A DNA stretch of 36,849 nt from a virus (IMGVR_UViG_2663763326_000006); one strand, 5' to 3'. Counted from the first letter of the stretch, positions 8,673 through 36,849 are shown. Notes: generated from the letters alone by a model not told the origin. A program made the numbers and translations.

Positions 8673-8695
8673 TATCAAGATAGAGATTCACTTTT

Positions 8696-11927: not shown

Positions 11928-11929
11928 TC

Positions 11930-13627: not shown

Positions 13628-13938
13628 TGGTCGATATTACCCGGGTACGCCGCGAATCCCTGCGCTGGAGTCTGCTGGTTGCCCTGAACAAGACCCGCCC
13701 TTACACCGCCAGCGAGACGCTGCTGCTGGATGTGTCCCGTGCCATCTACCCGGACACCACACCGCTGGAACTGCGCCGCGAACTGGATTATCTGGCTGAC
13801 CGTAAAATGGTTGAGCTGGAGAAAAAACCTTCTGGCGACTGGTTTGCTGACCTGACCCGCCTCGGCGTAGACCTGGTGGAATACACCGTGGAATGTGGTC
13901 CGGGTATTGCCCGCCCGGAAAAGTACTGGAGTGAATAA
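13627..13938 (+). CDS. hypothetical phage protein preceding terminase genes (103 aa)
   Basis: ATGA overlap coupling with neighbours. Confidence 0.45.
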   Translation: MVDITRVRRESLRWSLLVALNKTRPYTASETLLLDVSRAIYPDTTPLELRRELDYLADRKMVELEKKPSGDWFADLTRLGVDLVEYTVECGPGIARPEKYWSE

Positions 13939-18373: not shown

Positions 18374-18375
18374 CA

Positions 18376-18834: not shown

Positions 18835-18880
18835 GTTTTCTCTCTTCAGGCGGGTGATTTATCATTGCCAGCGAATGAGG

Positions 18881-18920
18881 GGCTGTATTACCTTTATAAA
18901 GGCTTTACAGCCTCTGTTTT
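18881..18920 (+). terminator. hairpin (GGCTGTA ... TACAGCC enclosing palindrome CCTTTATAAAGG) followed by TCTGTTTTAT
   Basis: Located in the 214-bp non-coding gap after the G-like gene. Confidence 0.45.
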
Positions 18921-18983
18921 ATAACCGCCTCCGGTTCACCGCATTGCTTTCCCTGTCCTTCTCCCCTGATGTTTTCTAAAGCA

Positions 18984-18993
18984 GATTAAAATC
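18984..18993 (+). promoter_or_regulatory. GATTAAAATC motif, candidate late-promoter element upstream of protease/scaffold gene
   Basis: 56 bp upstream of ATG 19049; followed by GC-rich CGCCGGGCC like the other three copies. Confidence 0.35.
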
Positions 18994-19048
18994 GCCGGGC
19001 CTGCATTTCTCACAAACTGTCTCCGACAACATAACGCGGGACAGCAAA

Positions 19049-20164: not shown

Positions 20165-20178
20165 TTTAAGGAGAGAGC

Positions 20179-21132
20179 ATGTCTGATTACTTAAAAGGTA
20201 AACGTGTCGTTGATCCGGTACTGACCAGTATCGCCCGTGGCTATAAAAATGCCGCATTCATCGGCGAACGTATTTTCCCCGTCGTGCTGACGGACAAGGA
20301 AGGCGTGCGTGTACCGACCTTCGGGAAAACCGCCTTTGTGGAATATGACACCGAGCGTGCCGTCGGGGCGGACAGCAATGTTCTGGTCCGTGAAAAAACA
20401 GGCACGCTGGACCTGGTGCTGGGTGAACACGATCTGGCTGCGCCGGTGGACTATCGCGAGCAGGCGGAGTCCATGTTTAACGAAGAGAGCAAGGCCATCC
20501 GTCGCGCCACGAATGGCGTGAACCTGCGCCGTGAACTTATCGCTGCCCGTCTGGCTCAGGATGAAAAGGTCTACCGTACCGGGCACGTCAAAAAACTGAC
20601 AGCCAGTGATCGCTGGGCCGGTGGTAAGGGGGACCCCATCGGGGTGATTGAAGCCGGTATGGAAGCGGTCCGTACGGCCACGGGGCTGCGTCCTAACCTG
20701 ATGACCATGGGGGCCGGCGTGATGGCGCTGCTGAAGTTCCACCCGGCGATTCAGGCCGCCATCGGAGCCAACGAACGCAAGCGCATCACCACAGAAATCC
20801 TGCAGGACCTCTTTCAGATCGAAGAGATCGTCATCGGTGCCCCAGTCTCCCTGCCGTCCATGAAAGCGGCAATGGATAAGAACAGCGTGCCGGCGGATAT
20901 CTGGGGAGACAATCTGATGCTGCACTATGTCGGCAAACCGCAGCCGGGGGCGGACAGCGCGGACGAGAACGAGCCGTCCTTCGGCTACACCCTGCGTCGT
21001 AAGGGGATGCCTGTTGCCGACAAATACGACGGAGCCGGTGGCAAGGTGAAGTACTGCCGTTATACCGATATCTACAAAGTCGCCGTGGTTGGTGGCGATG
21101 CCGGGTATCTCATTACCGGTATCAGTAAATAA
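20179..21132 (+). CDS. major head subunit (Mu T-like, 317 aa)
   Basis: Size, strong RBS, position after protease/scaffold. Confidence 0.8.
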   Translation: MSDYLKGKRVVDPVLTSIARGYKNAAFIGERIFPVVLTDKEGVRVPTFGKTAFVEYDTERAVGADSNVLVREKTGTLDLVLGEHDLAAPVDYREQAESMFNEESKAIRRATNGVNLRRELIAARLAQDEKVYRTGHVKKLTASDRWAGGKGDPIGVIEAGMEAVRTATGLRPNLMTMGAGVMALLKFHPAIQAAIGANERKRITTEILQDLFQIEEIVIGAPVSLPSMKAAMDKNSVPADIWGDNLMLHYVGKPQPGADSADENEPSFGYTLRRKGMPVADKYDGAGGKVKYCRYTDIYKVAVVGGDAGYLITGISK

Positions 21133-21141
21133 GGAGGCGTT

Positions 21142-21927
21142 ATGGGAACCACTCAGCAGGTCATTCTGATCACAACCGTAACGGCAGGGGCAGCACTGGC
21201 ACAGCAGCGTTTTGTCGGGGCAGATAATACCCCCTGTAAAGCCGGTGCCGCAGCGCTCGGGGTTGCCGAAGTGGATGCTGTTACCGGCGACAGCACGCCG
21301 GTGAGCGTTCTGGGCATTATTGCTGTCGAGGCCGGGGCCGCTGTCAGCCGTGGTGTGGCTGTTCAGTCAGATGCTCAGGCCAGAGCCGTGCCGCAGTCCG
21401 GCGACGGTAAATCCTGTGGTATTGCACTTGATGAAGCCGGGGTGAAGGCGACGTCATTCGTATCCTGCGCGGGGTGTGACATGTACTGCACCCTGGAGGA
21501 TTTGCTTGCGCAGGTGCCGGAGCGGACGCTTATCGAGCTCACCAGTGAAGAGATGGACTTCGACTCACCTGCAACAGTGAATACCCGTGTGGTGGACAGC
21601 TGTATCCGCTATGCCGACGAGCTGATTGATGCCCATCTGCGCGGACGCTATATCCTGCCACTGGCAGAGATACCGACTGTTCTGCGGGACATTGCCATCA
21701 CGCTGGTCCGTTACCGGCTCTACGCCCGCCGCCCGGAAGGTGACCTCCCGGATACGGTGAAGGATGACCACAAAGAAGCGCTGCGGCAACTCAGGGAGTT
21801 ACGTGATAACAGGCTCACGCTGGGGCTGCCGTCCACTCAGAAAGATGTGCCTGAGCCTGGCGAGTTTCGTGTACGCAGTCGCCCGGCCACTTTCGGCGGT
21901 CGTGACGGTTTACTGGAGAAATACTGA
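21142..21927 (+). CDS. two-domain head-associated protein: DUF2190-like N-terminus fused in frame to Mu gp36-like C-terminus
   Basis: Gly/Ala/Val-rich N-terminal 112 aa; internal MYCTLEDLLAQVPERTLIELT resembles the usual start of gp36 (DUF1320) proteins. Confidence 0.5.
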   Translation: MGTTQQVILITTVTAGAALAQQRFVGADNTPCKAGAAALGVAEVDAVTGDSTPVSVLGIIAVEAGAAVSRGVAVQSDAQARAVPQSGDGKSCGIALDEAGVKATSFVSCAGCDMYCTLEDLLAQVPERTLIELTSEEMDFDSPATVNTRVVDSCIRYADELIDAHLRGRYILPLAEIPTVLRDIAITLVRYRLYARRPEGDLPDTVKDDHKEALRQLRELRDNRLTLGLPSTQKDVPEPGEFRVRSRPATFGGRDGLLEKY

Positions 21928-22391
21928 TGAACGTTCTGCCCGTCCTTGATGCGGTACTGGCCCGGTTACGCGAGAAGCTGCCGCAACTGCAGGTGGAGTA
22001 CTTCCCGGAGAAACCGGCTGAATATCGCCTGAACCATCCGGTTGGCGCGTTGCTGTTGAGCTATGCCGGTTCGCGCTTTGACAGGCCGGATGATACCGGT
22101 GCGGTGATCCAGTCTCAGACTATCCAGCTCTGCGTCACGGTGGTCTTCCGCCAGCTCAACGGTAAAAAAGGGGCGATTAATGTCCTGGATGCTGTCCGCC
22201 GCATTCTCGGTGGCCACACCCCGCCCGGCTGCCGCCGCCGTATCTGGCTGACCCGCGAGGTGTTTATCGGTGAAGTCAGGGGGCTGTGGCAGTACGCCCT
22301 CGACTTCGCGACTGAAAGCGTCTTTATCGAAGACAGCGATTTACCGTCCGGCCCGCTGTTAACCGAAGTGAACTATGAGGAAAGCGAGTGA
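21927..22391 (+). CDS. Mu gp37-like head-tail protein (154 aa)
   Basis: Synteny and overlap coupling. Confidence 0.5.
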   Translation: MNVLPVLDAVLARLREKLPQLQVEYFPEKPAEYRLNHPVGALLLSYAGSRFDRPDDTGAVIQSQTIQLCVTVVFRQLNGKKGAINVLDAVRRILGGHTPPGCRRRIWLTREVFIGEVRGLWQYALDFATESVFIEDSDLPSGPLLTEVNYEESE

Positions 22392-22642
22392 TGAAAGAAT
22401 ACCGCTATTCCGGCCCGGCCAGCGGCGTCACGCTGTCGGACGGAACCGAAATCCTGCTCTGGCCGGGGAAGACGGTTTCCCTGCCGGAGGAGCATGACTA
22501 CGTGAAGGTACTGGTGGCGCTGAAACATCTGACGCCGGTACCTGAAGAGACTAAACCCGCCGGCACACCGGCTGTGCAGTCACCAAAGCGCAGAAGCAGC
22601 AGTGACAGCGAAGTGAAAACGGAGGACACCCATGGCAGCTAA
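22388..22642 (+). CDS. Mu gp38-like small protein (84 aa)
   Basis: Synteny; overlaps neighbours. Confidence 0.45.
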   Translation: MMKEYRYSGPASGVTLSDGTEILLWPGKTVSLPEEHDYVKVLVALKHLTPVPEETKPAGTPAVQSPKRRSSSDSEVKTEDTHGS

Positions 22643-24059
22643 CTATCTGCATGGTCCCGAAACCATTGAGGTGGAAAACGGTGCCCGCCCGGTTAAAACG
22701 GTGAAATCTGCCGTTATTGGCCTGATTGGTACCGCCCCGATGGGGGATGTCAATACGCTGGTACAGTGCCTGTCTGAGAAAGACGCAGCGGCATTTGGCA
22801 GCCAGTTCACCGGCTTTACCATTCCGCAGGCGCTGGATGCGATTTATGACCATGGTGCAGGCACCGTTCTGGTCATTAACGTCCTCGACCCGGCGAAACA
22901 TAAAACGGCGATCGAGGATGAGGTGGTTACCTTTGACAAATCGACAGGGCAGGCCAGACTGGCGCATCCGGTTGTCGCTAATGTGGTGGTGAAAAACAGT
23001 GAAGGCAGCACCACCCACACGGCGAACACGGACTACCGTGTTGATGCGCAGGCGGGTGTGCTCACGAACCTGGGCAAGGCTATTGAGGCCGGTGGCAGCG
23101 TGAAGGTGAGCTATGAGTACGCGGACCCGTCGAAGGTGACTGCGGCGGACATCATCGGCGGGGTGAACAGCGCCGGAAACCGAACCGGCATGAAGCTGCT
23201 TAACGACAGCTTCAACCTGTACGGCTATTTCGCCAAAATTCTGATTGCGCCGGTGTTCTGCACCCAGAAGAGTGTCGCAGTTGAGCTTATCGCCATGGCA
23301 GAGAAGCTGGGCGCGGTAACCTACATTGATGCGCCTGTCGGTACCACCTTTGCACAGGCTCTGGCAGGTCGTGGCCCGGAAGGCACCATCAACTTCAATA
23401 CCAGCTCCGACCGCGTCCGTCTGTGCTATCCGCATGTGAAGGTATATGACCCGGTGACAAACACAGAGCGTCTGGAGCCGCTCAGCCAGCGTGCAGCAGG
23501 TCTGCGTGCCAGAGTCGATCTGGACAAGGGCTACTGGTGGTCATCCTCCAATCAGGAGATTCTGGGGATCACCGGCGTGGAGCGCCAGCTGTCCGCGATG
23601 ATTGATGACCCGCAGAGTGAGGTGAACCTGCTTAACGAACAGGGGATCACCACGGTATTCAGCAGTTACGGCAGCGGCCTTCGTCTGTGGGGTAACCGGA
23701 CGGCAGCATGGCCAACGGTCACCCATATGCGTAACTTTGAGAACGTTCGCCGCACCGGTGATGTGATCAACGAGTCCATTCGTTATTTCAGCCAGCAGTA
23801 CATCGACATGCCGATTACTCAGGCGCTGATTGATGCACTGACGGAGTCGGTCAACGCCTACGGTCGCAAAATGACTGGTGATGGTGCGGTACTGGGCTTC
23901 CGTTGCTGGTTTGATCCGGCCCGCAATCCGGAGACGGAGCTGGCCGCCGGGCACCTGTTGCTGAGCTACAAATATACGCCACCACCGCCGCTGGAGCGAC
24001 TGACGTTTGAGACTGAGATCACCTCGGAATACCTGTTAACCCTGAAAGGGGGCAACTGA
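22632..24059 (+). CDS. contractile tail sheath protein (475 aa)
   Basis: Size and position directly before the tube gene. Confidence 0.85.
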   Translation: MAANYLHGPETIEVENGARPVKTVKSAVIGLIGTAPMGDVNTLVQCLSEKDAAAFGSQFTGFTIPQALDAIYDHGAGTVLVINVLDPAKHKTAIEDEVVTFDKSTGQARLAHPVVANVVVKNSEGSTTHTANTDYRVDAQAGVLTNLGKAIEAGGSVKVSYEYADPSKVTAADIIGGVNSAGNRTGMKLLNDSFNLYGYFAKILIAPVFCTQKSVAVELIAMAEKLGAVTYIDAPVGTTFAQALAGRGPEGTINFNTSSDRVRLCYPHVKVYDPVTNTERLEPLSQRAAGLRARVDLDKGYWWSSSNQEILGITGVERQLSAMIDDPQSEVNLLNEQGITTVFSSYGSGLRLWGNRTAAWPTVTHMRNFENVRRTGDVINESIRYFSQQYIDMPITQALIDALTESVNAYGRKMTGDGAVLGFRCWFDPARNPETELAAGHLLLSYKYTPPPPLERLTFETEITSEYLLTLKGGN

Positions 24060-24580
24060 TGTCAAAGATTGAGATAAACCGCATCACGAATGCCAACATC
24101 TATCTGGATGGTACTAACCTGCTGGGACGGGCTGAGGAAGTTAAACTCCCCGATGTCTCCATGATTATGCAGGAACACAAGGCGCTGGGGATGGTGGGTA
24201 AGGTGGAACTCCCGGCTGGTTTTGACAAACTGGAAGGCGAAATCAAATGGAACAGCTTTTACCGCGATGCGATGCTGTCTGCCGCGAACCCGTACAGGTC
24301 GCTGGCACTGCAGTGTCGTTCCAGCGTCCAGCGCTACAGCTCGCAGGGGCTGATTGACGAAATCCCGCTGGTCACCTTCCTGACGATTATGTTCAAGAAG
24401 AACCCGCTGGGGACGTTCAAACAGCACGAGAACGCCGAGTTCTCCAGTAGCTTCACCTGCACGTATATCAGACAGGTACTGGATGGTGAAGAGCTGCTGC
24501 AACTGGACTATCTGGCCAACATCTTCCGGGTCGGCGGTGTTGATCAACTGACTGACTACCGTATCAATATCGGGGGCTGA
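24059..24580 (+). CDS. tail tube protein (173 aa)
   Basis: Size and ATGA overlap with sheath gene. Confidence 0.8.
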   Translation: MSKIEINRITNANIYLDGTNLLGRAEEVKLPDVSMIMQEHKALGMVGKVELPAGFDKLEGEIKWNSFYRDAMLSAANPYRSLALQCRSSVQRYSSQGLIDEIPLVTFLTIMFKKNPLGTFKQHENAEFSSSFTCTYIRQVLDGEELLQLDYLANIFRVGGVDQLTDYRINIGG

Positions 24581-24582
24581 CG

Positions 24583-24864
24583 GTGAGTGTTGAACTGACG
24601 GATAAAGGAGGACGATGTGCGGCACTGGGCATGTCAAATGGTACGTGGTTTACCCTCCTTGATATTCCGGGGGTGGAAACCCTTTTTAATACCCGTAAAA
24701 CCAATGACCCGATTGACTGCACACGTTCAAAGGCCCGCAAACTGGCGGATTTGATTGAAGCATGGGAGCCTCCCGACCACTGGTTCTCCGGCATCGGCAA
24801 ATCTGAGGGAAAGACGCTTCTCATCGCTTTCCTGCGTAACTGCAAGGGGTTTCGCACTTGCTGA
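24583..24864 (+). CDS. hypothetical protein after tail tube (93 aa, GTG start)
   Basis: ORF ends just before a terminator hairpin; no recognisable motif. Confidence 0.35.
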   Translation: MSVELTDKGGRCAALGMSNGTWFTLLDIPGVETLFNTRKTNDPIDCTRSKARKLADLIEAWEPPDHWFSGIGKSEGKTLLIAFLRNCKGFRTC

Positions 24865-24871
24865 CATCACA

Positions 24872-24895
24872 GGGGCTCCGGCCCCTTCTTCTTAA
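24872..24895 (+). terminator. rho-independent terminator GGGGC-TCCG-GCCCC followed by T-rich tract
   Basis: GC stem-loop followed by TTCTTCTT. Confidence 0.5.
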
Positions 24896-24899
24896 TCTC

Positions 24900-24909
24900 C
24901 TTTAATATC
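24900..24909 (+). promoter_or_regulatory. CTTTAATATC motif, candidate late-promoter element upstream of chaperone and tape-measure genes
   Basis: 53 bp upstream of ATG 24962, immediately after the terminator. Confidence 0.35.
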
Positions 24910-24961
24910 CGTCACGCGCTTCTCCCGACATACTGCCCTGAACTTACACAGGAGCACAATC

Positions 24962-25297
24962 ATGTCACAGACCCCATCCGATACTTTTAAATTGTCTTAT
25001 CCCTTCACCACTGCTGCAGGCACCAGAATTGAGCTGGTTGAACTGAAACGCCTGACGGTAAAAGACCTGAAGCAGGTGCGCAAAATCAGCAAAAACCCGG
25101 CAGACTGGGACGAACCGCTGATTGCCCGCAGTACTGGTCTTCTCCCGGAGGATCTCGACAATATGGATCTGGCTGATTACCTGCAGTTACAGAAACGATT
25201 TCAGCTCATCACGGGGATGGGTGAGAGCAACCAGGGCGCTGACGCAGGCGCAGGGGCTGCTGGCGAGATGGTTCCGGTTTCAGCCGGGGGAGATTGA
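24962..25297 (+). CDS. tail assembly chaperone (P2 gpE-like, 111 aa)
   Basis: Small acidic protein between tube and tape-measure genes; overlapping ORF in +1 frame encodes an acidic extension. Confidence 0.65.
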   Translation: MSQTPSDTFKLSYPFTTAAGTRIELVELKRLTVKDLKQVRKISKNPADWDEPLIARSTGLLPEDLDNMDLADYLQLQKRFQLITGMGESNQGADAGAGAAGEMVPVSAGGD

Positions 25298-25379
25298 TGC
25301 CCTCGATACTGACGATCTGGAGATGTGGCTGGAGCAGGCTGAAGAGCAAATCAAAAGCGAGTACGGCGACAAATCATAG
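25287..25379 (+). CDS. frameshift extension of the tail assembly chaperone (E-prime-like)
   Basis: +1 frame reads EIDALDTDDLEMWLEQAEEQIKSEYGDKS from a GGGGG run three codons before the chaperone stop. Confidence 0.4.
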   Translation, partial: GEIDALDTDDLEMWLEQAEEQIKSEYGDKS

Positions 25380-25454
25380 TACAGACAGCCGCCAGTAGCG
25401 GCTGTTCTGCGTTATCCCCTCACGTCTTTTCACCTTCCCCGGAGGTTAACCACT

Positions 25455-28405
25455 ATGTCGGGACAGTTTTCAGTCGGCGTTGTTATCGGCGGGATGATTG
25501 GCAGCACATTCCGTTCTGCAATGAGCGGTACCCGCCGTGCGCTTGATTCCCTGAGCGATACCTCACGCCGCCTGCAGGAACGTCAGAACGCTTTAACCCG
25601 TGCAACAGAACGTTATGGTCAACTGGGTTCTTCCCGGATGCAGCATCTCAACAGCGAGCTGCTGCGGGTAAGCCGCACCATGGAGCAAATTGAGCGCCAG
25701 CAGCGCCGTCTGTCAGCGGCATCCGCTACCAGTGATGCGCTGAAAGCTAACCGCATGGCGCTGTATGGTCAGGGGATTGAAGCGTATGGCATGGCACAGA
25801 CTGTTTATCATACGGTTTCCCCTGCCGTTCAGCAGTCCATGTCTTTTCAGGACAAAATGATTGATATGTCGATCACCGCAAAATATGACAATAAAACGCG
25901 GGATGCACTTGCCGGACAGATAAAAGGCTGGGCGCTTAAATACAATCAGTATCAGGATGAGCTGCAGGAGGCGATGGGTTCACTCATCAGCGACAATATT
26001 GATAATGTGTCAGATATCGGTTTTCTGATGCCGGATATTGCCCGCGCGGCAACGGCAACACGCACGTCTGCTCAGGACTGGGCAAAAGTGGCCGCAGTCT
26101 GGCAAAACTCCCTGAAAGGCGCGGCCAGAGATTTTGGTGCCGTTCAGAATATTATGGCTTATGCCGGTGACCAGGGGTCATTTGAAATCCCGGATCAGGT
26201 CAAGTGGATGCAGTCCCTGGCCCCAATGATGGCGGGTATTGCCAGTGGAAAAGAGGCTGTTGCTGAAATCGGGGCCAGTCTCCAGATAGCAAAAATCGGT
26301 GCAGGTTCCACCGACGAAGCAGCCAATAATTTTAAAAACTTTCTTACCAAAATTTTTGCCCGCGATACTCAGAAACAGTTTGCTGATCTGGGTATTGATT
26401 TGCAGGGATCTATTGCGAGTTATAAAGCTGCGGGGATCTCTCCGATTGAAGGGATGTTGAGTGTTATAGAACGTTACCTCAATGCCAAAAGCCCCGAAGC
26501 GCTGGCCGGCTTCAAATCAGCCATGAAAATAAAGAATGATACGGCAAGAGATGAGGCACTTCAGGCTCTGGCGAAAAACTTTGGTCTGGGCGATATGTTC
26601 GCGGATATGCAGGTCATGGCATTTATCCGCCCGATGCTGGCCAACATGGACAGATATCGAGAGATCCGTGCCGGTGCTCTCAGGGCTGCGGATAACGATT
26701 TGCTTGCCAGTGCTTATGATCAGCGGCTGAAATCTCCCCTTGAAGCCACTAAAACACTTATGGTCAGCAGTCGCGATCTGGCAATTACGCTGGGCGATCA
26801 ATTAGCTCCATCTTTTATTTCTCTGACTCAGGACTTGCTCCCACTCATTCAGGGGACAAAACACTGGGTGGCGACTCACCCGCAATTTGTCAGTGGGGCT
26901 TTTAAGCTCATCAGTGCGCTCCTTGCGATTAAGATAGCGACTGTTGGTCTCAAACTGGGGCTGAATCTCCTTATTTCCCCCTTTGTGAACGTCTGGAAAA
27001 CTGCTGTTTTACTCCGGACCAACTGGCATCGACTGACTACCGCACTCGGAGAAGGTGGCAAATTACGCTGGCTTGTCACTGGATTCAGCCGACTGACCAG
27101 CGGAGGACTGAAACTCAGCAAAGTTCTGGCGGGCAGCCTCGTTCGCGGTTTTATGAGCGCTGCACGTGCCGTTCTCTGGATTGGGCGAGCGCTGATGATG
27201 AATCCCATCGGTCTCGTTATCACCGCTGTCGCGGCAGCAGCTTACCTTATCTACCGCAACTGGGGGCAGTCAGTGGCTGGTTTAAACAGCGCTGGGCTGA
27301 CATTCAGGAAGCCTTTAACGGCGGTATCGCGGGAACTGGTAAGCTGCTGATTAACTGGTCGCCGGCAGGCCTGCTCTATAAAGCCTTTGCGGCTGCGCTG
27401 AAATATTTCGGCGTTACTCTGCCGGCAAAGTTCACCGACTTCGGTGGCCATCTTATCGACGGTTTGATTAACGGTATCAAAAACAAATGGGGGTCGCTCA
27501 AATCCAGTGTAACCGGAATGGGTGACAGCATCAGTAGCTGGTTTAAACAATGCTGGGCTGACATTCAGGAAGCCTTTAACGGCGGTATCGCGGGAACTGG
27601 TAAGCTGCTGATTAACTGGTCGCCGGCAGGTCTGCTCTATAAAGCCTTTGCAGCTGCGCTGAAATATCTTGGTGTTGATCTGCCGGCAAAGTTTACCGAC
27701 TTCGGTGGCCATCTTGTCGATGGTCTGATTAACGGTATCAAAAACAAATGGGAGTCGCTCAAATCCAGTGTAACCGGAATGGGCGACAGCATCAGTGGCT
27801 GGTTCAGCGAAAAGCTGGGCATTCATTCGCCGAGCCGCGTGTTTATGGGCTTTGGTGACAATATCGCGCAGGGGGCCGCCATTGGCCTGCAGCGGACCAC
27901 TCCGCTTGCAGCTCTGGCCGGGCAGCGAATGGCCAGTGAACTGCTCCCCAGAATGCCCGTGAGCATTCAGGGGCCAGAAATACGGGATAACACTTCAGGT
28001 GTTCGCTTCAGTATGCCGTTGCCCGATATCAATGGGTTTATGTCGTCTGCTAAAAATGCGATCGGAGCCGTAATCAATAGTTTGTCTTCCATGCCCGCTA
28101 TTCCGCTCTCCACCCGGGCATCGATTTTACCAGGGCAACGTCTGGCAAATGAGATGACACCGGATGTTCCCCGTATCCCCTCGCCTGAAATCCTGGCTGC
28201 CGGATATTCAGGCCGTGGTGCAGCTGCAACCGGCGGTGGAACGTCTGGTGGTATCCAGGTCAGCTTTAATCCTCAGTTTTTCCTCAATGGCAGGGAAACC
28301 ACAGCGCCTGCAGGACTGACTGGTGCCCTGAATATGAGTCTGCATGAGCTGGAAAAAATGCTGGAGCGTCTGCTGGCTCAGAAACAACGTAAGGAGTACC
28401 GCTGA
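25455..28405 (+). pseudogene. tail tape-measure gene split by a frame break (25455-27350 frame 0; continues in frame 2 to 28405)
   Basis: Frame 0 ends in a junk tail at 27350; frame 2 continues as a credible product from about 27267; break coincides with GGGGG at 27262-27266. Confidence 0.7.
27276..27797 (+). repeat. tandem direct duplication, 2 x 261 bp (87 codons), inside the tape-measure gene
   Basis: Two near-identical units (GCTGGTTTAAACA ... GACAGCATCAGT) differing at a handful of positions. Confidence 0.85.
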
Positions 28406-29289
28406 TGTTTGCCGTACTGGGTGATATTGAGTTTGAGCTGATTACCTACTGGGACGGCTTCGAGGCCACGTTCGGCGTCGATTATGCGGAGCATGCCCGC
28501 ATCGGGGGTAAGCCTGGTCTGCAGTTCGTCGGCGACAGGCTGGACGAAATCCAGATAACTCTGGTTTTCCATCAGCATTATTGTGTACCCGATGTGGAGC
28601 TGGCGAGACTGCGAACAGCCATGAAAGCCCATCAGGCACTGGCGCTGGTCTTCGGCAACGGTGACTATCGCGGCTGGTTCGTGATCACCGATGTGACTGC
28701 AACCAGCGAGCAGACTGACAGTACCGGCAACGTGCTGGCTGTCAGTGCCACCGTGTCTCTCCGGGAATACACCGGTGACCCGAAAAATCCTCTGCAACCA
28801 CCGGCAATACGCACGAAGCTCCCGGGTGTCGGGGCGGTCTCCGGTGCCATACCTTCACCTTCAGGGGTGGCGCAGTTCATCCGCAACGGCGTCAACTATG
28901 CGAAACAGGCGCAGTCTGTACTCCAGACCACTATCAGCGCCGTTCGGGTGACACAGAAAATGAAGGATAACCCCGTTGTCGCACTGACCCGTGTGCCGGG
29001 GCTGATGAGCGGACTGGGTAATATCTCCGGGGCTCTGGGGAAAAGTGTTCCGGCGTTTAACGCACTCTCTGAATCCATGCCCGATGCCATCAGTCTGGCC
29101 AGAACAGCCAGCGAAGCAGCCACGTATGTACAGCAGGCACAGTCTGCGCTGAGTGGTGTGGACAAAAGAAATATTGCAGGTGCTCTGGATACCGTTTCCG
29201 GGCAGCTTAACGCCGTCGGCACAGCATTCAACCGCATGTCTCCGGGATTAAGTGCAATGGCCGCCAGAATACTGACGAGGAGTGTGTGA
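28405..29289 (+). CDS. tail protein with P2 gpU-like N-terminal domain and C-terminal extension (294 aa)
   Basis: Position after tape measure in P2 gene order; start overlaps tape-measure stop. Confidence 0.45.
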   Translation: MFAVLGDIEFELITYWDGFEATFGVDYAEHARIGGKPGLQFVGDRLDEIQITLVFHQHYCVPDVELARLRTAMKAHQALALVFGNGDYRGWFVITDVTATSEQTDSTGNVLAVSATVSLREYTGDPKNPLQPPAIRTKLPGVGAVSGAIPSPSGVAQFIRNGVNYAKQAQSVLQTTISAVRVTQKMKDNPVVALTRVPGLMSGLGNISGALGKSVPAFNALSESMPDAISLARTASEAATYVQQAQSALSGVDKRNIAGALDTVSGQLNAVGTAFNRMSPGLSAMAARILTRSV

Positions 29290-29501
29290 TGTTTCTTGAA
29301 CATGTTACCCGTGACGGAGAGCGCTGGGATTCGCTGGCATGGCAGTACTACGGTGACCCGCTGGGCTATCCCCGGATTATTGCCGCCAATCCGCACGTGG
29401 CCATCACGCCGGTGCTGCCCTCCGGGCTGTTGTTACTGATCCCGGTGATTGAGGCTGAAGAAGCCCGTACAGAAGAGGATATTGCCCCATGGCTGAGATA
29501 A
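29286..29501 (+). CDS. tail protein X-like (71 aa)
   Basis: Pattern WDSLAWQYYGDPLGYPRIIAANPHVA resembles P2 gpX; precedes gpD-like gene. Confidence 0.6.
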   Translation: MMFLEHVTRDGERWDSLAWQYYGDPLGYPRIIAANPHVAITPVLPSGLLLLIPVIEAEEARTEEDIAPWLR

Positions 29502-30622
29502 ACAGCACTGCGCAAGTCACATCAGCGTTAACCGGCGTCAGCGATGTGCTGACACCGGTGTTCACTCTGTGGTATCTGCAGAAAAACATCACCTCTGATA
29601 TCGCGCCTTATGTCACCCGTGTGACCTGGAGCGATAACATCAAAAATGAGTCCGATACCATTGAGGTGGAGCTGGACGACACCGATGGCCGCTGGCTGGA
29701 TAAATGGTATCCGGGCAAGGGTGACACGCTGACGCTGAAAATGGGCTATCAGGGCGAGAAGCTGCTGTCCTGCGGTACGTTCTCTATAGACGAGATCGAA
29801 GTGAGTTCGCCCGCTTCCGTTGTTTCTATCCGTGGGGTGGCCACCTCGGTTAACAGTGCCCTGCGGACTAAAACCAGTCGTGGTTTTGAGAACACCACGC
29901 TGGCAGCTGTTGCGGGGCGGATTGCCAGAAAGCACCGGCTGAAACTGGTGGGCAGCATTGAGTCCATCAGAATCGACCGGGTGACCCAGTATGCTGAAAC
30001 CGACGTGGGTTTTCTGCGCCGGCTGGCCAGCGAGTATGGTTATGCAGTGAAAGTGGTCAGTGACCAGCTGATTTTTTCTCATCTGGCCACACTGCGCAGT
30101 CAGGAGCCGGTCAGGCAGTTAAAACCGCAGGATGTGGCCCGCTTTTCCCTGCGTGACACCATCAACCGGGTCTATAAATCTGCAAAGGTAAAACACCAGA
30201 AAAGCAGCAGTAAAAAACTGATCGTCTACGAAGCTGATGGTGGTACCCGTGAAAGCGACAAAAAGCTCAAAGGTGGTAAGGTTACCAGCGCTGACTCACT
30301 TAAAGTTAACAGCCGCGTCAGCGACCCGGACAGTGCCCGGATTAAAGCGGATTCAGCACTGGCCAGACATAACGAATACCAGCAGAACGGCTCCCTGACG
30401 CTGACGGGAACACCTCAACTGACAGCAGGCAACAAAATTGAACTGGTGAGTTTTGGGCAGTTATCCGGGCCATGGCTCATAACCACTGCCCGCCATGCGT
30501 TTGACCGTAACAGCGGCTACACCACAGAGCTGGAAGTGGCACGGGGCCAGTCACAAGAGGGAAAAAACAAAAAACTCAGAAACTCACGGTTTATCACCCG
30601 GATGGCAGTACATCGACGGTGA
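29489..30622 (+). CDS. tail protein D (P2 gpD / Mu P-like, 377 aa)
   Basis: Size and synteny between X-like and V-like genes. Confidence 0.75.
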   Translation: MAEINSTAQVTSALTGVSDVLTPVFTLWYLQKNITSDIAPYVTRVTWSDNIKNESDTIEVELDDTDGRWLDKWYPGKGDTLTLKMGYQGEKLLSCGTFSIDEIEVSSPASVVSIRGVATSVNSALRTKTSRGFENTTLAAVAGRIARKHRLKLVGSIESIRIDRVTQYAETDVGFLRRLASEYGYAVKVVSDQLIFSHLATLRSQEPVRQLKPQDVARFSLRDTINRVYKSAKVKHQKSSSKKLIVYEADGGTRESDKKLKGGKVTSADSLKVNSRVSDPDSARIKADSALARHNEYQQNGSLTLTGTPQLTAGNKIELVSFGQLSGPWLITTARHAFDRNSGYTTELEVARGQSQEGKNKKLRNSRFITRMAVHRR

Positions 30623-30638
30623 TTAAGGAGAAGAAAAA

Positions 30639-31235
30639 ATGACTGGTGTCACTCGTCAGGTCGGTACGGTCAGTGCCGTTGATGCCGACAGGGTTCAGGC
30701 CCGCGTTCGTCTGCCTGAATGCGATAACCTGCGCACAAACTGGCTTAACGTGCTGCAGCGCAATACCCAGGATAACAAAGATTACTGGCTCCCTGACGTG
30801 GGGGAGCAGGTTGAGGTGCTGCTCGATGCCAACGGCGAGGATGGTGTTATTCTGGGCGCGGTGTATTCAGACGTCGATAAACCACCGTTCAGTGACAAAA
30901 ATATCCGGGGAACCCGGTTTGCTGATGGTGCAGAGTACAGCTACAACCGGAAGACGCACACTCTGATCATCCGGGGCGGCATTGAGCATATTGTCATTGA
31001 GTGTGGTGCTGATGTGGTATTGAAAACACAGAAAGCCACGATTGACGCACCGGAAACCGAACTTACCGGAGATCTGCGTGTCAGGGGTAAGCTGATTTAC
31101 GAAGGAGGCATGGCGGGTTCTGGTGGTGAAGGTGTTACCGCGACCATCCATGGCAATATCGAGATTAAAGGGAATGTCCATGCCACGGGCAGTATGTTGT
31201 CTGATGGCGAAAACTCCAGCCACCACTCCCACTGA
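30639..31235 (+). CDS. baseplate spike/assembly protein V (198 aa)
   Basis: Size, Gly-rich C-terminus, histidine-rich end; precedes W and J. Confidence 0.75.
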   Translation: MTGVTRQVGTVSAVDADRVQARVRLPECDNLRTNWLNVLQRNTQDNKDYWLPDVGEQVEVLLDANGEDGVILGAVYSDVDKPPFSDKNIRGTRFADGAEYSYNRKTHTLIIRGGIEHIVIECGADVVLKTQKATIDAPETELTGDLRVRGKLIYEGGMAGSGGEGVTATIHGNIEIKGNVHATGSMLSDGENSSHHSH

Positions 31236-31248
31236 GCTTTTTAAACGC

Positions 31249-31258
31249 CTTTAATATC
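31249..31258 (+). promoter_or_regulatory. CTTTAATATC motif, candidate late-promoter element upstream of baseplate W
   Basis: 31 bp upstream of ATG 31289; followed by GGGGCA-ATAC-TGCCCC hairpin abutting the start codon. Confidence 0.3.
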
Positions 31259-31288
31259 AGCGTTCCCGCACGGGGGCAATACTGCCCC

Positions 31289-31635
31289 ATGAAAACAACC
31301 TCAGTATTCTGGCAACCAGCCCTGCAGGCTCCCGGCGAAATTGTCCGGGGGCTGGATGATATCCGGCAGGCGATTCAAATTATCCTGCGGACTCCCCGCG
31401 GCAGCGACCCGCATCGCCCGGAGTTCGGCAGCAATCTGCATCTTTATATCGACTGGCCTGTAGACCGGGCCATTCCGCATGTGGTGCGCGAATCCGTCGA
31501 TGCCATCCGGCGCTGGGAGCCCGCTGCCAGCTTATGTCAGTTAAACCCGCCGTCGACGGCGAACATCTTACGCTCCGGGTGAGCTGGAAAGGCTCAGACG
31601 GACAGACCCGGACTCAGGAGCTGCTATGGCGCTGA
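31289..31635 (+). pseudogene. baseplate protein W (GPW/gp25 family) with apparent single-base frame break
   Basis: Frame of ATG 31289 reads through RRWEP then junk; -1 frame continues RCQLMSVKPAVDGEHLTLRVSWKGSDGQTRTQELLWR to a stop overlapping J; break at CCC 31520-31522. Confidence 0.65.
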
Positions 31636-32729
31636 CAGAACCCGATTTTATTGAACGCGATGCCGACAAAATCACGGCAGAAATGATTGCGAAGTATGAA
31701 GCGGATACCGGCAAAACGCTGTACCCGGCACAGGCAGAACGTCTGCTGATTGATCTGTGGGCCTATCGCGAAATGCTGGTCAGGGTTGCGGTACAGGAGG
31801 CAGCAAAGCAGAATCTGGTCGCCTTTGCCCGTGAGCCGATGATTGATTACCTCGGTGAACTGGTCGGTGTATACCGTCTTGCCGCGCAGCCTGCCACCAC
31901 CACGCTCCAGTTCTCCGTAGATGAGGCACTGGCCATTGATGTGCTGATCCCGGCAGGCACCCGCGTCAGCGCTTCCGACAGCGTTATTTTTGCCACCGAT
32001 ACAGATGTGGTACTGAAGGCCGGATTGCTGCTGGTCAATGTCACGGCCACCTGTACCGAACCCGGTACCGCTGGTAACGGCTGGCAACCTGCGCAGGTCA
32101 GTCAGTTACTCGATGAGATTGATAACGTTAACCTGCTGGTGAGCAATCTGATGGCCAGTTCCGGCGGTTCAGAACAGGAAGACGATGACAGGCTCCGGGA
32201 GCGTATCAGGCTGGCCCCGGAGTCATTCACCAATGCCGGAAGCCGTGGCGCATACCGCTTTCATGCCATGCAGGCCCATCCCAACATTGTCGATGTTGCT
32301 GTGCTTTCCCCGGTTCCCGGGACCGTAGATCTGTATCCGCTGCTCAGTACCGGTCTGCCGGACGGCGGTGTTCTCACGCTGGTAGAGAGTTTCTGCTCTG
32401 ATGAGAAAGTCAGGCCACTCACTGATACAGTGCGGGCTAAAACACCAGTGAAGGTGGATTACACCATTGAAGCCAGGATTACGATCTATCGTGATCAGGA
32501 TGCCAGGTCTGTAAAAGATGCCGCTAACAGCGCCATACAGAACTGGGTGGCATCACGTGCCGCCACGCTGGGGCGCGATATTGTCCCCAGCCAGATTATC
32601 AGTGCATTGTCCGTTTCCGGGGTGTACCAGGTTGAACTGGTGACACCGGCACTGCGGGTGGTGGCAGAAAACGAATGGGCAAACTGTACGGCAATCACTC
32701 TTAACATGACTGGAGTGTCTGATGACTGA
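31626..32729 (+). CDS. baseplate protein J (367 aa)
   Basis: Size and synteny V-W-J-I-H. Confidence 0.8.
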   Translation: MALTEPDFIERDADKITAEMIAKYEADTGKTLYPAQAERLLIDLWAYREMLVRVAVQEAAKQNLVAFAREPMIDYLGELVGVYRLAAQPATTTLQFSVDEALAIDVLIPAGTRVSASDSVIFATDTDVVLKAGLLLVNVTATCTEPGTAGNGWQPAQVSQLLDEIDNVNLLVSNLMASSGGSEQEDDDRLRERIRLAPESFTNAGSRGAYRFHAMQAHPNIVDVAVLSPVPGTVDLYPLLSTGLPDGGVLTLVESFCSDEKVRPLTDTVRAKTPVKVDYTIEARITIYRDQDARSVKDAANSAIQNWVASRAATLGRDIVPSQIISALSVSGVYQVELVTPALRVVAENEWANCTAITLNMTGVSDD

Positions 32730-33300
32730 GCCATTACAACTCCCGCCACCGCTTGAGGGTGATATCAGTCTCAGGACGCTGGGAAGACTGGCAGGACGGC
32801 TGGATAACATCGACCTGAGCGTACTGATGGTCTTTCTCGTCGATATCGTCGACAGTTCCGCGCTGCCATGGCTGGGCGAGCAGTTCTCACTGTCTGGCGA
32901 TGGCTGGGAGCTGGCGGAATCGGACGATGTTCGCCGCATGCTTATAAAAGCAGCCATCGAACTGCACCGGTATAAAGGGACGCCGTGGTCAATCCGGGAA
33001 GTTATCCGCCGTTTTGGCTTTGGTGAAGTGGATCTGATTGAAGGCACAGGTCGTCTCAGTTACGACGGCAATCGCAGCTATAACGGACTGTTTGTTCATG
33101 GAGATGCAGCCGCCTGGGCAGTTTATCGCGTTATTCTGAAACAGCCCATTACTAACGATCAGGCCGCGATGCTGCGTCAGACGCTGGCTGCATTTGCACC
33201 GGCCCGCTGCCATCTGGCCAGCCTGGAGTATCAGTCTGTGGCCATTCGCTATAACAATACCGCCATCCATGATGGCAGTTATAACCACGGGAGCAGTTGA
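32722..33300 (+). CDS. tail protein I (192 aa)
   Basis: Synteny between J and tail fibre; overlapping starts. Confidence 0.65.
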   Translation: MTEPLQLPPPLEGDISLRTLGRLAGRLDNIDLSVLMVFLVDIVDSSALPWLGEQFSLSGDGWELAESDDVRRMLIKAAIELHRYKGTPWSIREVIRRFGFGEVDLIEGTGRLSYDGNRSYNGLFVHGDAAAWAVYRVILKQPITNDQAAMLRQTLAAFAPARCHLASLEYQSVAIRYNNTAIHDGSYNHGSS

Positions 33301-34550
33301 TTATGGGAAACCTGAATGAAACAGAAAAGTGGGAAGAAAATATCTATCAACTGGAGACATCAGATCCGGTTCTGGGTGGTGCAGACGGGATATCAAATCG
33401 AGCCCCCCGGCAACTGGCAAACAGGACGAAATGGCTGAAGAAGAAAACGGAGGAAGCCGCACAGTCACTGGCTGAACACGTACGTTCCCGTAACCACCCG
33501 GACGCGACACTGACAGCTAAGGGGTTCACCCAACTGAGCAGTGCCACCAACAGCACCTCTGAAACGCTGGCCGCCACACCAAAAGCGGTCAAGGCTGCAT
33601 ACGACCTGGCAGCCGGCAAGGCGCCTGCCAGCCACACTCACCCGTGGAGTCAGATAACGGGAGTGCCTGCGGCTTCACTGACGGCAAAAGGCACCGTACA
33701 ACTGAGCAGCGCCACGGACAGTCAATCAGAAACTGAGGCTGCCACGCCGAAGGCGGTCAAGGCTGCATACGACCTTGCAGCCGGCAAGGCGCCCGTCAGC
33801 CACACTCACCCGTGGAGTCAGATAACGGGAGTGCCTGCTGCCTCGCTGACGGCAAAAGGCACCGTACAATTGAGCAGTGCCATCAACAGCACGTCTGAAA
33901 TACTGGCCGCCACACCGAAAGCGGTCAAGGCTGCATACGATCTGGCAAACGGAAAACAACCGGCAGATGCCACGCTCACTGCTCTGGCAGGACTTGCCAC
34001 TGCAGCAGATCGGTTGCCTTATTTTACCGGAGCAGACCGCGCAGAGCTGGCAACCCTTACAGCTATTGGTCGCGCTATTATCGCTAAGGGCAGTATAAAA
34101 GATGTCCTCAATTACCTTGGTTTGGGGGAAGGCTCGGCGCTGCCCGTTGGTGTACCTGTTCCGTGGCCCACTGCCACACCGCCAGCAGGCTGGTTAAAGT
34201 GCGACGGGCGCGCCTTTACAAAAGAACAATATCCTGTTCTGGCCAGAGTCTACCCGACCCTCCGTCTTCCCGATTTACGCGGTGAGTTTATCCGTGGATG
34301 GGACGACGGGCGAAAAGTGGATACAGGGCGCGATCTGCTTTCACGGCAGGATGGTACAAGTTTTTCTCATTACGCAGGTAATTTTGACATTGGGTCTGGT
34401 CATTCAATCAATAACTATGACCAAATCGTTGACAACCAACCTGGATTCTCCCGTTTTTCATTTGCAGGTCCTTCGCGAGGCGATGGGGTTAATTATGTGA
34501 CCATTCGTCCCCGTAACATTGCGTTTAATTACATCGTAAGGGCGGCATAG
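33297..34550 (+). CDS. tail fibre protein with fibre repeats and C-terminal tail-collar-like domain (417 aa)
   Basis: Three tandem 56-aa repeats; C-terminal VPWPTATPPAGWLKCDGRAFTKEQYPVLARVY...LPDLRGEFIRGWDDG resembles the tail-collar domain. Confidence 0.8.
   Translation: MIMGNLNETEKWEENIYQLETSDPVLGGADGISNRAPRQLANRTKWLKKKTEEAAQSLAEHVRSRNHPDATLTAKGFTQLSSATNSTSETLAATPKAVKAAYDLAAGKAPASHTHPWSQITGVPAASLTAKGTVQLSSATDSQSETEAATPKAVKAAYDLAAGKAPVSHTHPWSQITGVPAASLTAKGTVQLSSAINSTSEILAATPKAVKAAYDLANGKQPADATLTALAGLATAADRLPYFTGADRAELATLTAIGRAIIAKGSIKDVLNYLGLGEGSALPVGVPVPWPTATPPAGWLKCDGRAFTKEQYPVLARVYPTLRLPDLRGEFIRGWDDGRKVDTGRDLLSRQDGTSFSHYAGNFDIGSGHSINNYDQIVDNQPGFSRFSFAGPSRGDGVNYVTIRPRNIAFNYIVRAA
33510..33950 (+). 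repeat. about 2.6 tandem copies of a 168-bp (56-codon) tail-fibre repeat
   Basis: Repeat units start at 33510, 33678 and 33846; encode LTAKGTVQLSSA...AATPKAVKAAYDLA. Confidence 0.85.
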
Positions 34551-34554
34551 AAAC

Positions 34555-34699
34555 GTTGGTTTAGGAGAAGGCTCGGCGCTACCCGTTGGTGTGCCTGTTC
34601 CGTGGCCCACCGCCACACCGCCAGCAGGCTGGTTAAAGTGCGACGGGCGCGCCTTTACAAAAGAACAATATCCTGTTCTGGCCAGAGTCTACCCGACCC
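34555..34699 (+). other. second tail-collar cassette fragment, direct repeat of 34115-34262, truncated by IS26
   Basis: About 145 bp roughly 95 percent identical to the start of the collar-domain region, ending at the IS26 boundary. Confidence 0.6.
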
Positions 34700-35519
34700 G
34701 GCACTGTTGCAAAGTTAGCGATGAGGCAGCCTTTTGTCTTATTCAAAGGCCTTACATTTCAAAAACTCTGCTTACCAGGCGCATTTCGCCCAGGGGATCA
34801 CCATAATAAAATGCTGAGGCCTGGCCTTTGCGTAGTGCACGCATCACCTCAATACCTTTGATGGTGGCGTAAGCCGTCTTCATGGATTTAAATCCCAGCG
34901 TGGCGCCGATTATCCGTTTCAGTTTGCCATGATCGCATTCAATCACGTTGTTCCGGTACTTAATCTGTCGGTGTTCAACGTCAGACGGGCACCGGCCTTC
35001 GCGTTTGAGCAGAGCAAGCGCGCGACCATAGGCGGGCGCTTTATCCGTGTTGATGAATCGCGGGATCTGCCACTTCTTCACGTTGTTGAGGATTTTACCC
35101 AGAAACCGGTATGCAGCTTTGCTGTTACGACGGGAGGAGAGATAAAAATCGACAGTGCGGCCCCGGCTGTCGACGGCCCGGTACAGATACGCCCAGCGGC
35201 CATTGACCTTCACGTAGGTTTCATCCATGTGCCACGGGCAAAGATCGGAAGGGTTACGCCAGTACCAGCGCAGCCGTTTTTCCATTTCAGGCGCATAACG
35301 CTGAACCCAGCGGTAAATCGTGGAGTGATCGACATTCACTCCGCGTTCAGCCAGCATCTCCTGCAGCTCACGGTAACTGATGCCGTATTTGCAGTACCAG
35401 CGTACGGCCCACAGAATGATGTCACGCTGAAAATGCCGGCCTTTGAATGGGTTCATGTGCAGCTCCATCAGCAAAAGGGGATGATAAGTTTATCACCACC
35501 GACTATTTGCAACAGTGCC
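34700..35519 (-). mobile_element. IS26 (820 bp, IS6 family), complete
   Basis: 14-bp terminal inverted repeats GGCACTGTTGCAAA at 34700-34713 and 35506-35519; flanking 8-mers CCCGACCC and GCCGCCGC differ. Confidence 0.95.
34752..35456 (-). CDS. tnpA: IS26 transposase Tnp26 (234 aa)
   Basis: Protein begins MNPFKGRHFQRDIILWAVRWYCKYGISYRELQEM, recognised as IS26 Tnp26. Confidence 0.95.
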   Translation of the reverse strand: MNPFKGRHFQRDIILWAVRWYCKYGISYRELQEMLAERGVNVDHSTIYRWVQRYAPEMEKRLRWYWRNPSDLCPWHMDETYVKVNGRWAYLYRAVDSRGRTVDFYLSSRRNSKAAYRFLGKILNNVKKWQIPRFINTDKAPAYGRALALLKREGRCPSDVEHRQIKYRNNVIECDHGKLKRIIGATLGFKSMKTAYATIKGIEVMRALRKGQASAFYYGDPLGEMRLVSRVFEM

Positions 35520-35633
35520 GGCCGCCGCCGGCATCGGCCTGGCGAACAGGAAACCCTGCACCGTGTCGCAACCCGCCTGCCGCAACCACGCAAGGCAGTC
35601 GGGTGTTTCCACACCCTCGGCTACCACCTCCAT
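35520..35633 (-). pseudogene. tnpM: Tn21-type urf2/tnpM remnant (EAL-domain C-terminal fragment), cut by IS26
   Basis: Minus strand encodes [37 protein letters not shown]; bounded by IRi on one side and IS26 on the other. Confidence 0.65.
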
Positions 35634-35658
35634 TGTCGTTTTCAGAAGACGGCTGCAC
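35634..35658. repeat. IRi, 25-bp terminal inverted repeat at the intI1 end of a class 1 integron
   Basis: Sequence TGTCGTTTTCAGAAGACGGCTGCAC. Confidence 0.85.
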
Positions 35659-35835
35659 TGAACGTCAGAAGCCGACTGCACTATAGCAGCGGAGGGGTTG
35701 GATCCATCAGGCAACGACGGGCTGCTGCCGGCCATCAGCGGACGCAGGGAGGACTTTCCGCAACCGGCCGTTCGATGCGGCACCGATGGCCTTCGCGCAG
35801 GGGTAGTGAATCCGCCAGGATTGACTTGCGCTGCC

Positions 35836-36849
35836 CTACCTCTCACTAGTGAGGGGCGGCAGCGCATCAAGCGGTGAGCGCACTCCGGCACCGCCAACTT
35901 TCAGCACATGCGTGTAAATCATCGTCGTAGAGACGTCGGAATGGCCGAGCAGATCCTGCACGGTTCGAATGTCGTAACCGCTGCGGAGCAAGGCCGTCGC
36001 GAACGAGTGGCGGAGGGTGTGCGGTGTGGCGGGCTTCGTGATGCCTGCTTGTTCTACGGCACGTTTGAAGGCGCGCTGAAAGGTCTGGTCATACATGTGA
36101 TGGCGACGCACGACACCGCTCCGTGGATCGGTCGAATGCGTGTGCTGCGCAAAAACCCAGAACCACGGCCAGGAATGCCCGGCGCGCGGATACTTCCGCT
36201 CAAGGGCGTCGGGAAGCGCAACGCCGCTGCGGCCCTCGGCCTGGTCCTTCAGCCACCATGCCCGTGCACGCGACAGCTGCTCGCGCAGGCTGGGTGCCAA
36301 GCTCTCGGGTAACATCAAGGCCCGATCCTTGGAGCCCTTGCCCTCCCGCACGATGATCGTGCCGTGATCGAAATCCAGATCCTTGACCCGCAGTTGCAAA
36401 CCCTCACTGATCCGCATGCCCGTTCCATACAGAAGCTGGGCGAACAAACGATGCTCGCCTTCCAGAAAACCGAGGATGCGAACCACTTCATCCGGGGTCA
36501 GCACCACCGGCAAGCGCCGCGACGGCCGAGGTCTTCCGATCTCCTGAAGCCAGGGCAGATCCGTGCACAGCACCTTGCCGTAGAAGAACAGCAAGGCCGC
36601 CAATGCCTGACGATGCGTGGAGACCGAAACCTTGCGCTCGTTCGCCAGCCAGGACAGAAATGCCTCGACTTCGCTGCTGCCCAAGGTTGCCGGGTGACGC
36701 ACACCGTGGAAACGGATGAAGGCACGAACCCAGTGGACATAAGCCTGTTCGGTTCGTAAACTGTAATGCAAGTAGCGTATGCGCTCACGCAACTGGTCCA
36801 GAACCTTGACCGAACGCAGCGGTGGTAACGGCGCAGTGGCGGTTTTCAT
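35836..36849 (-). CDS. intI1: class 1 integron integrase IntI1 (337 aa, complete; start codon at window end)
   Basis: Protein [40 protein letters not shown] ... [11 protein letters not shown] recognised as IntI1; R32 and H39 present. Confidence 0.97.
36734..36762 (+). promoter_or_regulatory. integron cassette promoter Pc, weak PcW variant (-35 TGGACA, 17-bp spacer, -10 TAAACT)
   Basis: Hexamers at 36734-36739 and 36757-36762 on the strand opposite intI1; no TGN directly upstream of the -10. Confidence 0.8.

Follow-up and report, generated by a model that had tools for sequence, protein, structure and literature searches.

Class 1 integron edge with a Tn21 scar, joined by IS26 to a Mu-like prophage

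An integrase gene at the end of a viral sequence raises the question of whether it belongs to the virus or to another mobile element that has come to lie beside it. The question is posed here by a stretch of 36,849 nucleotides (IMGVR_UViG_2663763326_000006; the whole of it is called the window below), which consists over positions 1-34699 of a Mu-like transposable prophage, as judged from Pfam matches, and stops at 36849 on the first base of the ATG of a complete intI1 gene. The segment 35520-36849 is almost certainly best explained as the left edge (IRi/5'-CS) of a class 1 integron of the clinical type that descends from a Tn21-family transposon, and no sequence evidence contradicting its reading as the 5'-CS of such an integron was found. 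The integron edge, the Tn21-derived IRi/tnpM junction, the IS26-bounded region, and the IncF dfrA17-aadA5/chrA/IS6100/mph(A) module are all well-described families. The edge is thus ordinary and already known, it leaves the knowledge of integrons unchanged, and the main value of its analysis is a correct annotation. On present evidence, the sole unusual aspect is a strain-specific joint to the Mu-like prophage, an accident of IS26 rather than a functional association between phage and integron. Sequence identities, junctions, and the downstream content of a contig with the identical junction were observed directly.

Class 1 integron edge and Tn21 scar

The right-hand part of the window is organized as follows.

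34551-34699, + strand: first 149 bp of an invertible tail-fibre segment, the last phage DNA in the window; start of a Collar-domain ORF (from 34591), cut by IS26
34700-35519, - strand: complete IS26, 820 bp, with 14-bp terminal inverted repeats GGCACTGTTGCAAA and the tnp26 ATG at 35456
35520-35633, - strand: remnant of Tn21 tnpM, its first 38 codons (114 bp), cut by IS26
35634-35658, + strand: IRi, the 25-bp terminal inverted repeat at the integrase end of a class 1 integron/Tn402-family element, TGTCGTTTTCAGAAGACGGCTGCAC
35659-35681, directly after IRi: second, imperfect copy of the IRi repeat, TGAACGTCAGAAGCCGACTGCAC
35836-36849, - strand: complete intI1, an uninterrupted ORF of 337 aa encoding IntI1 R32_H39
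36734-36762, + strand: cassette promoter Pc, variant PcH1; -35 box TGGACA (36734-36739), 17-nt spacer, -10 box TAAACT (36757-36762)

The initial annotation had listed IRi, an EAL-domain fragment, intI1, and the Pc hexamers, and all of them lie exactly where it had placed them. The 1330-bp segment 35520-36849 is 100% identical to at least 4998 plasmid records. It also matches Tn21 of plasmid R100 (NC_002134; the reverse complement of 35400-36849 was aligned) at 1329/1330 positions, the sole mismatch falling at base 36760, where the Pc -10 box has its fourth position. The 25-bp IRi sequence has a single occurrence in the window (25/25, 0 mismatches), for 0 expected from 100 shuffles, and it stands beyond the 3' end of intI1, as in class 1 integrons.

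The gene tnpM is the EAL-domain 3' part of an ancestral gene, urf2M, which In2 interrupted in Tn21. In the window, the fragment of 114 bp beside IRi is identical at 114/114 positions to tnpM of R100 Tn21 and matches the Pfam EAL profile (PF00563) at the C-terminal end of the domain, over profile positions 202-236 of 236 (E 6.5e-10), which bears out the proposed proximity of IRi and an EAL-domain fragment. Read on the minus strand, it begins with ATG GAG GTG GTA, and this ATG directly abuts IRi, as in Tn21, where the integron sits in urf2M against the tnpM start codon. PGAP labels the same segment of plasmid NZ_CP196244 (locus L001) an 'EAL domain-containing protein, incomplete'. Past tnpM codon 38, R100 continues into the rest of tnpM, res, and tnpR, whereas the window continues into IS26. 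No Tn21 res, tnpR, tnpA, or mer was found in the window, nor among the ORFs of at least 95 aa in the 8 kb downstream of intI1 in the matching contig described below; they are also absent from the annotated stretch of an IncF plasmid with which this contig is collinear. A Tn21 transposition module (res, tnpR, tnpA, and 38-bp inverted repeats) with a mer operon is thus missing from the region covered. Hence, of the claim of a class 1 integron edge in a Tn21 context, the edge and the urf2M/tnpM insertion point stand, and the Tn21 context reduces to a 114-bp scar, because IS26 replaces everything past tnpM codon 38.

The integrase gene is intact, as the initial annotation had read it. Its 337-aa product matches Pfam Phage_integrase (1.7e-49) and Phage_int_SAM_4 (1e-27), it has Arg at codon 32 (CGA) and His at codon 39 (CAC), and the identical DNA is annotated in NZ_CP196244 as intI1, WP_000845048.1.

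Downstream of the window

The promoter of intI1 and its LexA box lie beyond the end of the window. What may follow there can be read from a contig that carries the same structure. ORF 34591-34806 of the window is specific to the junction, because it reads from the phage Collar-domain gene into IS26 (Pfam Collar match over residues 1-33). Its exact 71-aa product led to LORP02000008.1, a 327-kb contig of GCA_001471815.2, the relevant locus of which is called L009 here. Compared with window positions 24595-36849, L009 shows 0 mismatches, and it differs by four single-base indels in homopolymers, every one of them within a phage gene. Because of these four indels, L009 represents the same structure and not provably the same record as the window.

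After the intI1 ATG, L009 continues with attI1, dfrA17, aadA5, sul1, chrA fragments, padR, and IS6100. The 139 bp that follow intI1 are those of Tn21 attI1 up to the GTTA crossover, minus the 3-bp GGG of Tn21, so that a genuine attI1 is present in L009, outside the window, which ends at the ATG. The ORFs of dfrA17 and aadA5 come next, collinear with the annotated plasmid. Indeed, L009 is collinear over 10.1 kb with the IncF plasmid NZ_CP196244 (0 mismatches, 99.84%, 15 gap openings), and the match runs inside the mph(A) operon to the end of the stretch covered by L009, 12.2 kb short of the end of the contig. In this stretch the plasmid is annotated with intI1, dfrA17, aadA5, qacEΔ1, sul1, chrA, padR, IS6100, mphR(A), and mrx(A), and mph(A) lies just past the end of the match; against other plasmids the identity of L009 is 99.8-99.9%. 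The sul1 ORF, together with this collinearity, identifies the qacEΔ1-sul1 3'-CS in L009, likewise outside the window.

The initial annotation had expected attI1 and any cassettes beyond the end of the window, and had named a lack of attI1 or an isolated integrase gene as what would speak against its reading. The contig with the identical junction carries attI1, dfrA17-aadA5, and the 3'-CS, and because it continues in this way the objection falls. We infer from L009 that attI1, cassettes, and 3'-CS also adjoin the window's own intI1.

An IRt copy, TGTCATTTTCAGAAGACGACTGCAC, is located at 17242-17266 of L009, between padR and IS6100, and is direct, not inverted, relative to IRi. In the 8 kb downstream of intI1 in L009, no inverted IRt was found at up to 3 mismatches, and no ORF attributable to tni genes was found among the ORFs of at least 95 aa. 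The inverted IRi/IRt pair enclosing tniABQR that characterizes the Tn402 family is therefore not seen there. Because IRt is direct and tni ORFs are lacking in this stretch, the integron is of the usual non-self-mobile clinical type. In the same contig, chrA (15681-16883) and the IS6100 transposase (17390-17969) are each broken up into ORFs that overlap, probably through long-read homopolymer errors in GC-rich DNA and not by real inactivation.

Among known systems, In2 in Tn21 (R100/NR1, NC_002134) shares with the window IRi, the urf2M/tnpM insertion point, and intI1 over the near-identical 35520-36849, and it shares with L009 an identical attI1 up to the crossover point. It differs in its cassette, aadA1, compared with dfrA17-aadA5 in L009. 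Moreover, tnpM of the window is cut after 114 bp by IS26, and tnpR, tnpA, mer, and the tni/IS1326/IS1353 region of Tn21 are absent. The second close relative is a module that is standard on IncF plasmids of E. coli, IS26-ΔtnpM-intI1-dfrA17-aadA5-qacEΔ1-sul1-chrA-padR-IS6100-mphR-mrx-mph(A), as in NZ_CP196244 and NZ_OY019089 (ST131). Besides the collinearity of L009, the likeness extends to 100% identity between NZ_CP196244 and window positions 34697-36849, with the same 114-bp tnpM breakpoint. The two part company on the outer side of IS26, which adjoins plasmid or transposon genes in IncF plasmids (for example, a truncated DMT transporter) and the Mu-like tail-fibre segment in the window.

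Cassette promoter and integrase activity

A σ70 consensus scan of 35400-36849 returned 1 site, Pc, for 0.4 expected. The scan alone is weak evidence, and the location of the site is that of the experimentally defined Pc, inside intI1 and facing the cassettes, as is the rule in class 1 integrons. Integrase and promoter share their bases: codon 39 (CAC) overlaps the -35 box, codon 32 (CGA) corresponds to the TCG that precedes the -10 box, and codons 31 and 30 (TTA, AGT) form the -10 box. With TCG at this place, there is no TGN extension.

The initial annotation had called this promoter the weak PcW. The hexamers that it gave, TGGACA and TAAACT, and the absence of a TGN extension were right, and the name was not. 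Indeed, PcW is TGGACA/17/TAAGCT and PcH1 is TGGACA/17/TAAACT (Jové et al., 2010, Table 1; PMC2791841); the window carries the latter. At 36760 the window has A (TAAACT) and R100 Tn21 has G (TAAGCT), and it is therefore Tn21 that carries PcW. According to that reading, the window would hold an unmodified Tn21/In2-type platform with minimal cassette expression, PcW being the weakest among the common variants, and the shared -35 box, the lack of a TGN extension, and the integrase do agree with it, IntI1 R32_H39 being found with both PcW and PcH1 (Jové et al., 2010, Table 3; PMC2791841). Residues 32 and 39 cannot separate the two variants, because the A/G change at 36760 is silent in IntI1 (codon S30). 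What decides is the -10 box, since PcW needs TAAGCT (PMC2791841) and positions 36757-36762 read TAAACT. In addition, R100 Tn21 combines TAAGCT with the P2-activating GGG, whereas the window differs at 36760 and the matching contig is without GGG. PcW is thus already refuted by the sequence, provided that 36760 is not a sequencing error, and we see next to no chance that it is the promoter here.

Promoter strength, integrase activity, and SOS control are discussed from published work on the same families. By analogy with these, Pc, on the strand opposite to intI1, would drive rightward transcription of the promoterless cassettes, out of the window and toward attI1. IntI1 (R32_H39), a tyrosine recombinase, would insert and excise cassettes at attI1, which starts just past the window end. 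In L009, P2 has its hexamers, TTGTTA and TACAGT, separated by a spacer of only 14 nt; because of this spacing, and with GGG absent, P2 is inactive. PcH1 is accordingly the most likely candidate for sole promoter of dfrA17 (trimethoprim) and aadA5 (streptomycin/spectinomycin). In L009, the integrase promoter is overlain by an intact LexA box, CTGTACAAAAAAACAG, and intI1 should for this reason be SOS-controlled. In contrast, In2/Tn21 carries the GGG insertion and PcW.

The name matters for expression. PcH1 is about 4.5-fold stronger than PcW, and among the integrase variants IntI1 R32_H39 excises most actively, exceeding R32_N39 51-fold and P32_H39 336-fold (PMC2791841). If these values apply here, expression of dfrA17-aadA5 would be about 4.5-fold higher than under PcW, paired with the most excision-proficient integrase (PMC2791841). 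In a survey of E. coli isolates, PcH1 was present in 55/55 of those with dfrA17-aadA5 (PMC9058876).

IS26 joints and the Mu-like prophage

The element at 34700-35519 is IS26 by its length of 820 bp, its 14-bp repeats, and its single DDE transposase of 234 aa (Pfam DDE_Tnp_IS240, 2.5e-48), and in the identical stretch of NZ_CP196244 the transposase CDS is IS26 WP_001067855.1. The coordinates of the initial annotation left out this copy, which bounds the tnpM fragment on its left. The octamers that flank it, CCCGACCC and GGCCGCCG, differ, and an 8-bp target-site duplication is absent. Because its flanks differ, this IS26 copy is a joint between two unrelated DNAs and not a simple insertion. Cointegration by IS26 or an adjacent deletion leaves junctions without target duplication.

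Junctions were counted with an asymmetric 60-bp probe (20 bp of IS26 and 40 bp of tnpM), for which 80% coverage is attained only if the joint is crossed. The exact IS26/ΔtnpM-114 junction is present in 18/5426 complete E. coli genomes, where it is in every case plasmid-borne (plasmids of 128-187 kb and of human origin, one of them ST131); a further 1268 of the complete genomes have the tnpM segment beside IRi with another truncation or none. The 114-bp tnpM scar and its IS26 breakpoint thus provide a lineage marker that links the region to few human E. coli IncF plasmids. The phage/IS26 junction, on the other hand, was found in 0/5426 complete E. coli genomes, the best coverage of 34300-36849 being 84% and starting at IS26; one public contig, LORP02000008.1, has it. 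The chromosome of E. coli EcPF7, the single chromosomal near match, was considered as a product of the same event and rejected, its IS26 being inverted, its array dfrA12-orfF-aadA2, and no prophage lying nearby. The EcPF7 locus (L011, 19258-24529) has the same 114-bp tnpM breakpoint, encodes a different IntI1 (WP_000845039.1), and lies between IS1 copies near pdhR. It suggests that the breakpoint predates today's arrays of cassettes, or else that recombination has exchanged arrays.

A succession of events may be proposed, in which the mechanism of IS26 and the direction of transfer, from plasmid to the present site, are drawn from published work on the same families. The 114-bp tnpM fragment would be the scar of the original insertion of the integron into urf2M of Tn21, and IS26 would later have deleted the remaining Tn21. 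An IS26-mediated event would have joined the IncF resistance block to the Mu-like prophage, 149 bp inside the invertible tail-fibre segment. Altogether, the data suggest that IS26 mediated the move of a resistance module from a plasmid to a new site.

On the phage side, the following genes were assigned with Pfam.

1-390: Mor
3013-3543: Gam
3843-5048: MuB-like AAA ATPase
5020-6789: rve-type transposase

The prophage is 99.96-100% identical to phage PhiKM, classified as a Bcepmuvirus. Its DDE transposase, MuB-like ATPase, Gam, and Mor, together with copies at different chromosomal sites, are those of a Mu-like (BcepMu-type) prophage, and the right-hand flanks of related prophages are not the same from one genome to another, which is what a transposing phage should show. 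Positions 34000-34699 of the window are identical (700/700) to 10698-11397 of a related intact prophage (L003). In the intact relatives, the 415-aa tail-fibre gene is followed by a segment of 1615 bp (L003 11249-12863) that occurs in both orientations and is 100% identical when reversed. This segment holds Collar-domain ORFs and a tail-fibre assembly gene, and a resolvase-type (Gin-like) invertase gene comes after it (L003 11249-13575 for the whole). The phage ends 2178 bp past the position that IS26 occupies in the window. The IS26 cut thus leaves the window without the alternative fibre ends, assembly protein, and invertase, and also without the right end of the phage. It had been proposed that the resistance region directly abuts the prophage; it does so through IS26, 149 bp into the invertible segment.

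The extent of the window could be taken to mean that IntI1 is the prophage's own integrase, or that intI1 is orphaned beside the prophage without attI1 or cassettes: the window stops exactly at the intI1 start codon, and both its ends fall on the ends of ORFs, as might result from a prophage caller treating IntI1 as a phage integrase. We hold this to be extremely unlikely. In the one public contig that shares this phage/IS26 junction, intI1 is followed by canonical attI1, dfrA17, aadA5, and 3'-CS, and IS26 and the Tn21 fragment separate intI1 from the phage DNA. Moreover, the phage is of the Mu-like kind, having a DDE transposase and a MuB-like ATPase, and over the 13.6 kb that run from the tail-sheath gene up to the right end, its related intact copies lack a tyrosine integrase. 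IntI1 as a phage protein was rejected on the presence of that transposase and ATPase and of Gam and Mor. Doubt may also be directed at the joint itself, which would be an assembly chimera if IS26 copies had been collapsed and the integron really lay on a plasmid. IS26 is indeed multicopy (a median of 7 matching places per E. coli genome), homopolymer indels in both the window and L009 point to error-prone assemblies, and no complete E. coli genome carries the junction. Yet the 327-kb contig spans IS26 on both sides and runs through at least one further IS (IS6100), as is typical of long reads crossing an 820-bp IS, 2 samples are reported with the junction contig, and an IS26 junction without target duplication is the expected product of cointegration or deletion. 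A chimera is in our opinion improbable.

It is conceivable, and in our judgement quite unlikely, that IS26 implanted the IncF module inside a Mu-like prophage that still transposes, and that the other 2.2 kb of phage (rest of the invertible segment, tail-fibre assembly gene, invertase, and right end) follow on the far side of the resistance region. IS26, intI1, and the first cassettes could in that case be moved when the phage transposes, or be packaged by a headful mechanism starting at the left end, and this would be a transposable-phage route by which class 1 integrons spread, distinct from the P1-type phage-plasmids already described. Class 1 integrons in phage genomes (P1-like phage-plasmid MH445380; PMC9892861) do resemble the window in having the identical IRi-intI1 beside phage genes. 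However, P1-like phage-plasmids replicate autonomously and can transfer, whereas the integron of the window is joined to an integrated Mu-like prophage that has no right end in the window. Because this prophage is truncated and integrated and shows no right end there, nothing suggests phage-borne mobility of the integron, and the class 1 integron edge, joined by IS26 to a truncated prophage, is the reading that we retain.

Position 1 of the window is the stop codon of the Mor-family ORF and 36849 the intI1 ATG; these limits look like those that a prophage caller would set if it mistook IntI1 for a phage integrase. An intI1 gene beside a prophage, if so mistaken, would inflate the counts of 'phage-borne' integrons, and a Mu-like phage needs no such integrase.

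Compared with L009 and several other prophage copies, the window has four single-base deletions in G/C runs, at about 27262, 30543, 31285, and 31520. At least one of them splits the tape-measure ORF (25455-27350 and 27464-28405, for 983 aa elsewhere). These deletions look like homopolymer sequencing errors rather than real pseudogenes. The PhiKM record (PQ738613, L002) was set aside as a guide to the prophage ends, being a permuted partial assembly of the same prophage without the right end. Window positions 13936-27367 correspond to 1-13434 of this record, 27554-34249 to 13535-20233, and 1-13935 to 20740-34674, and the record breaks within the tail-fibre repeat and has its tape-measure gene interrupted by a gap; a literature search for phage PhiKM returned only unrelated papers, and one for the assembly accession LORP00000000 returned none. 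Several repeats mark the tail genes. The tape-measure gene has a tandem-like duplication of about 280 bp at 92-95% identity (27266-27804), and the tail-fibre gene one of about 250 bp at 85%, with Phage_fiber_2 repeats (33531-33947). A Collar-domain repeat has copies of about 150-215 bp within the main fibre gene and at either end of the invertible segment (window 34114-34699; L003).
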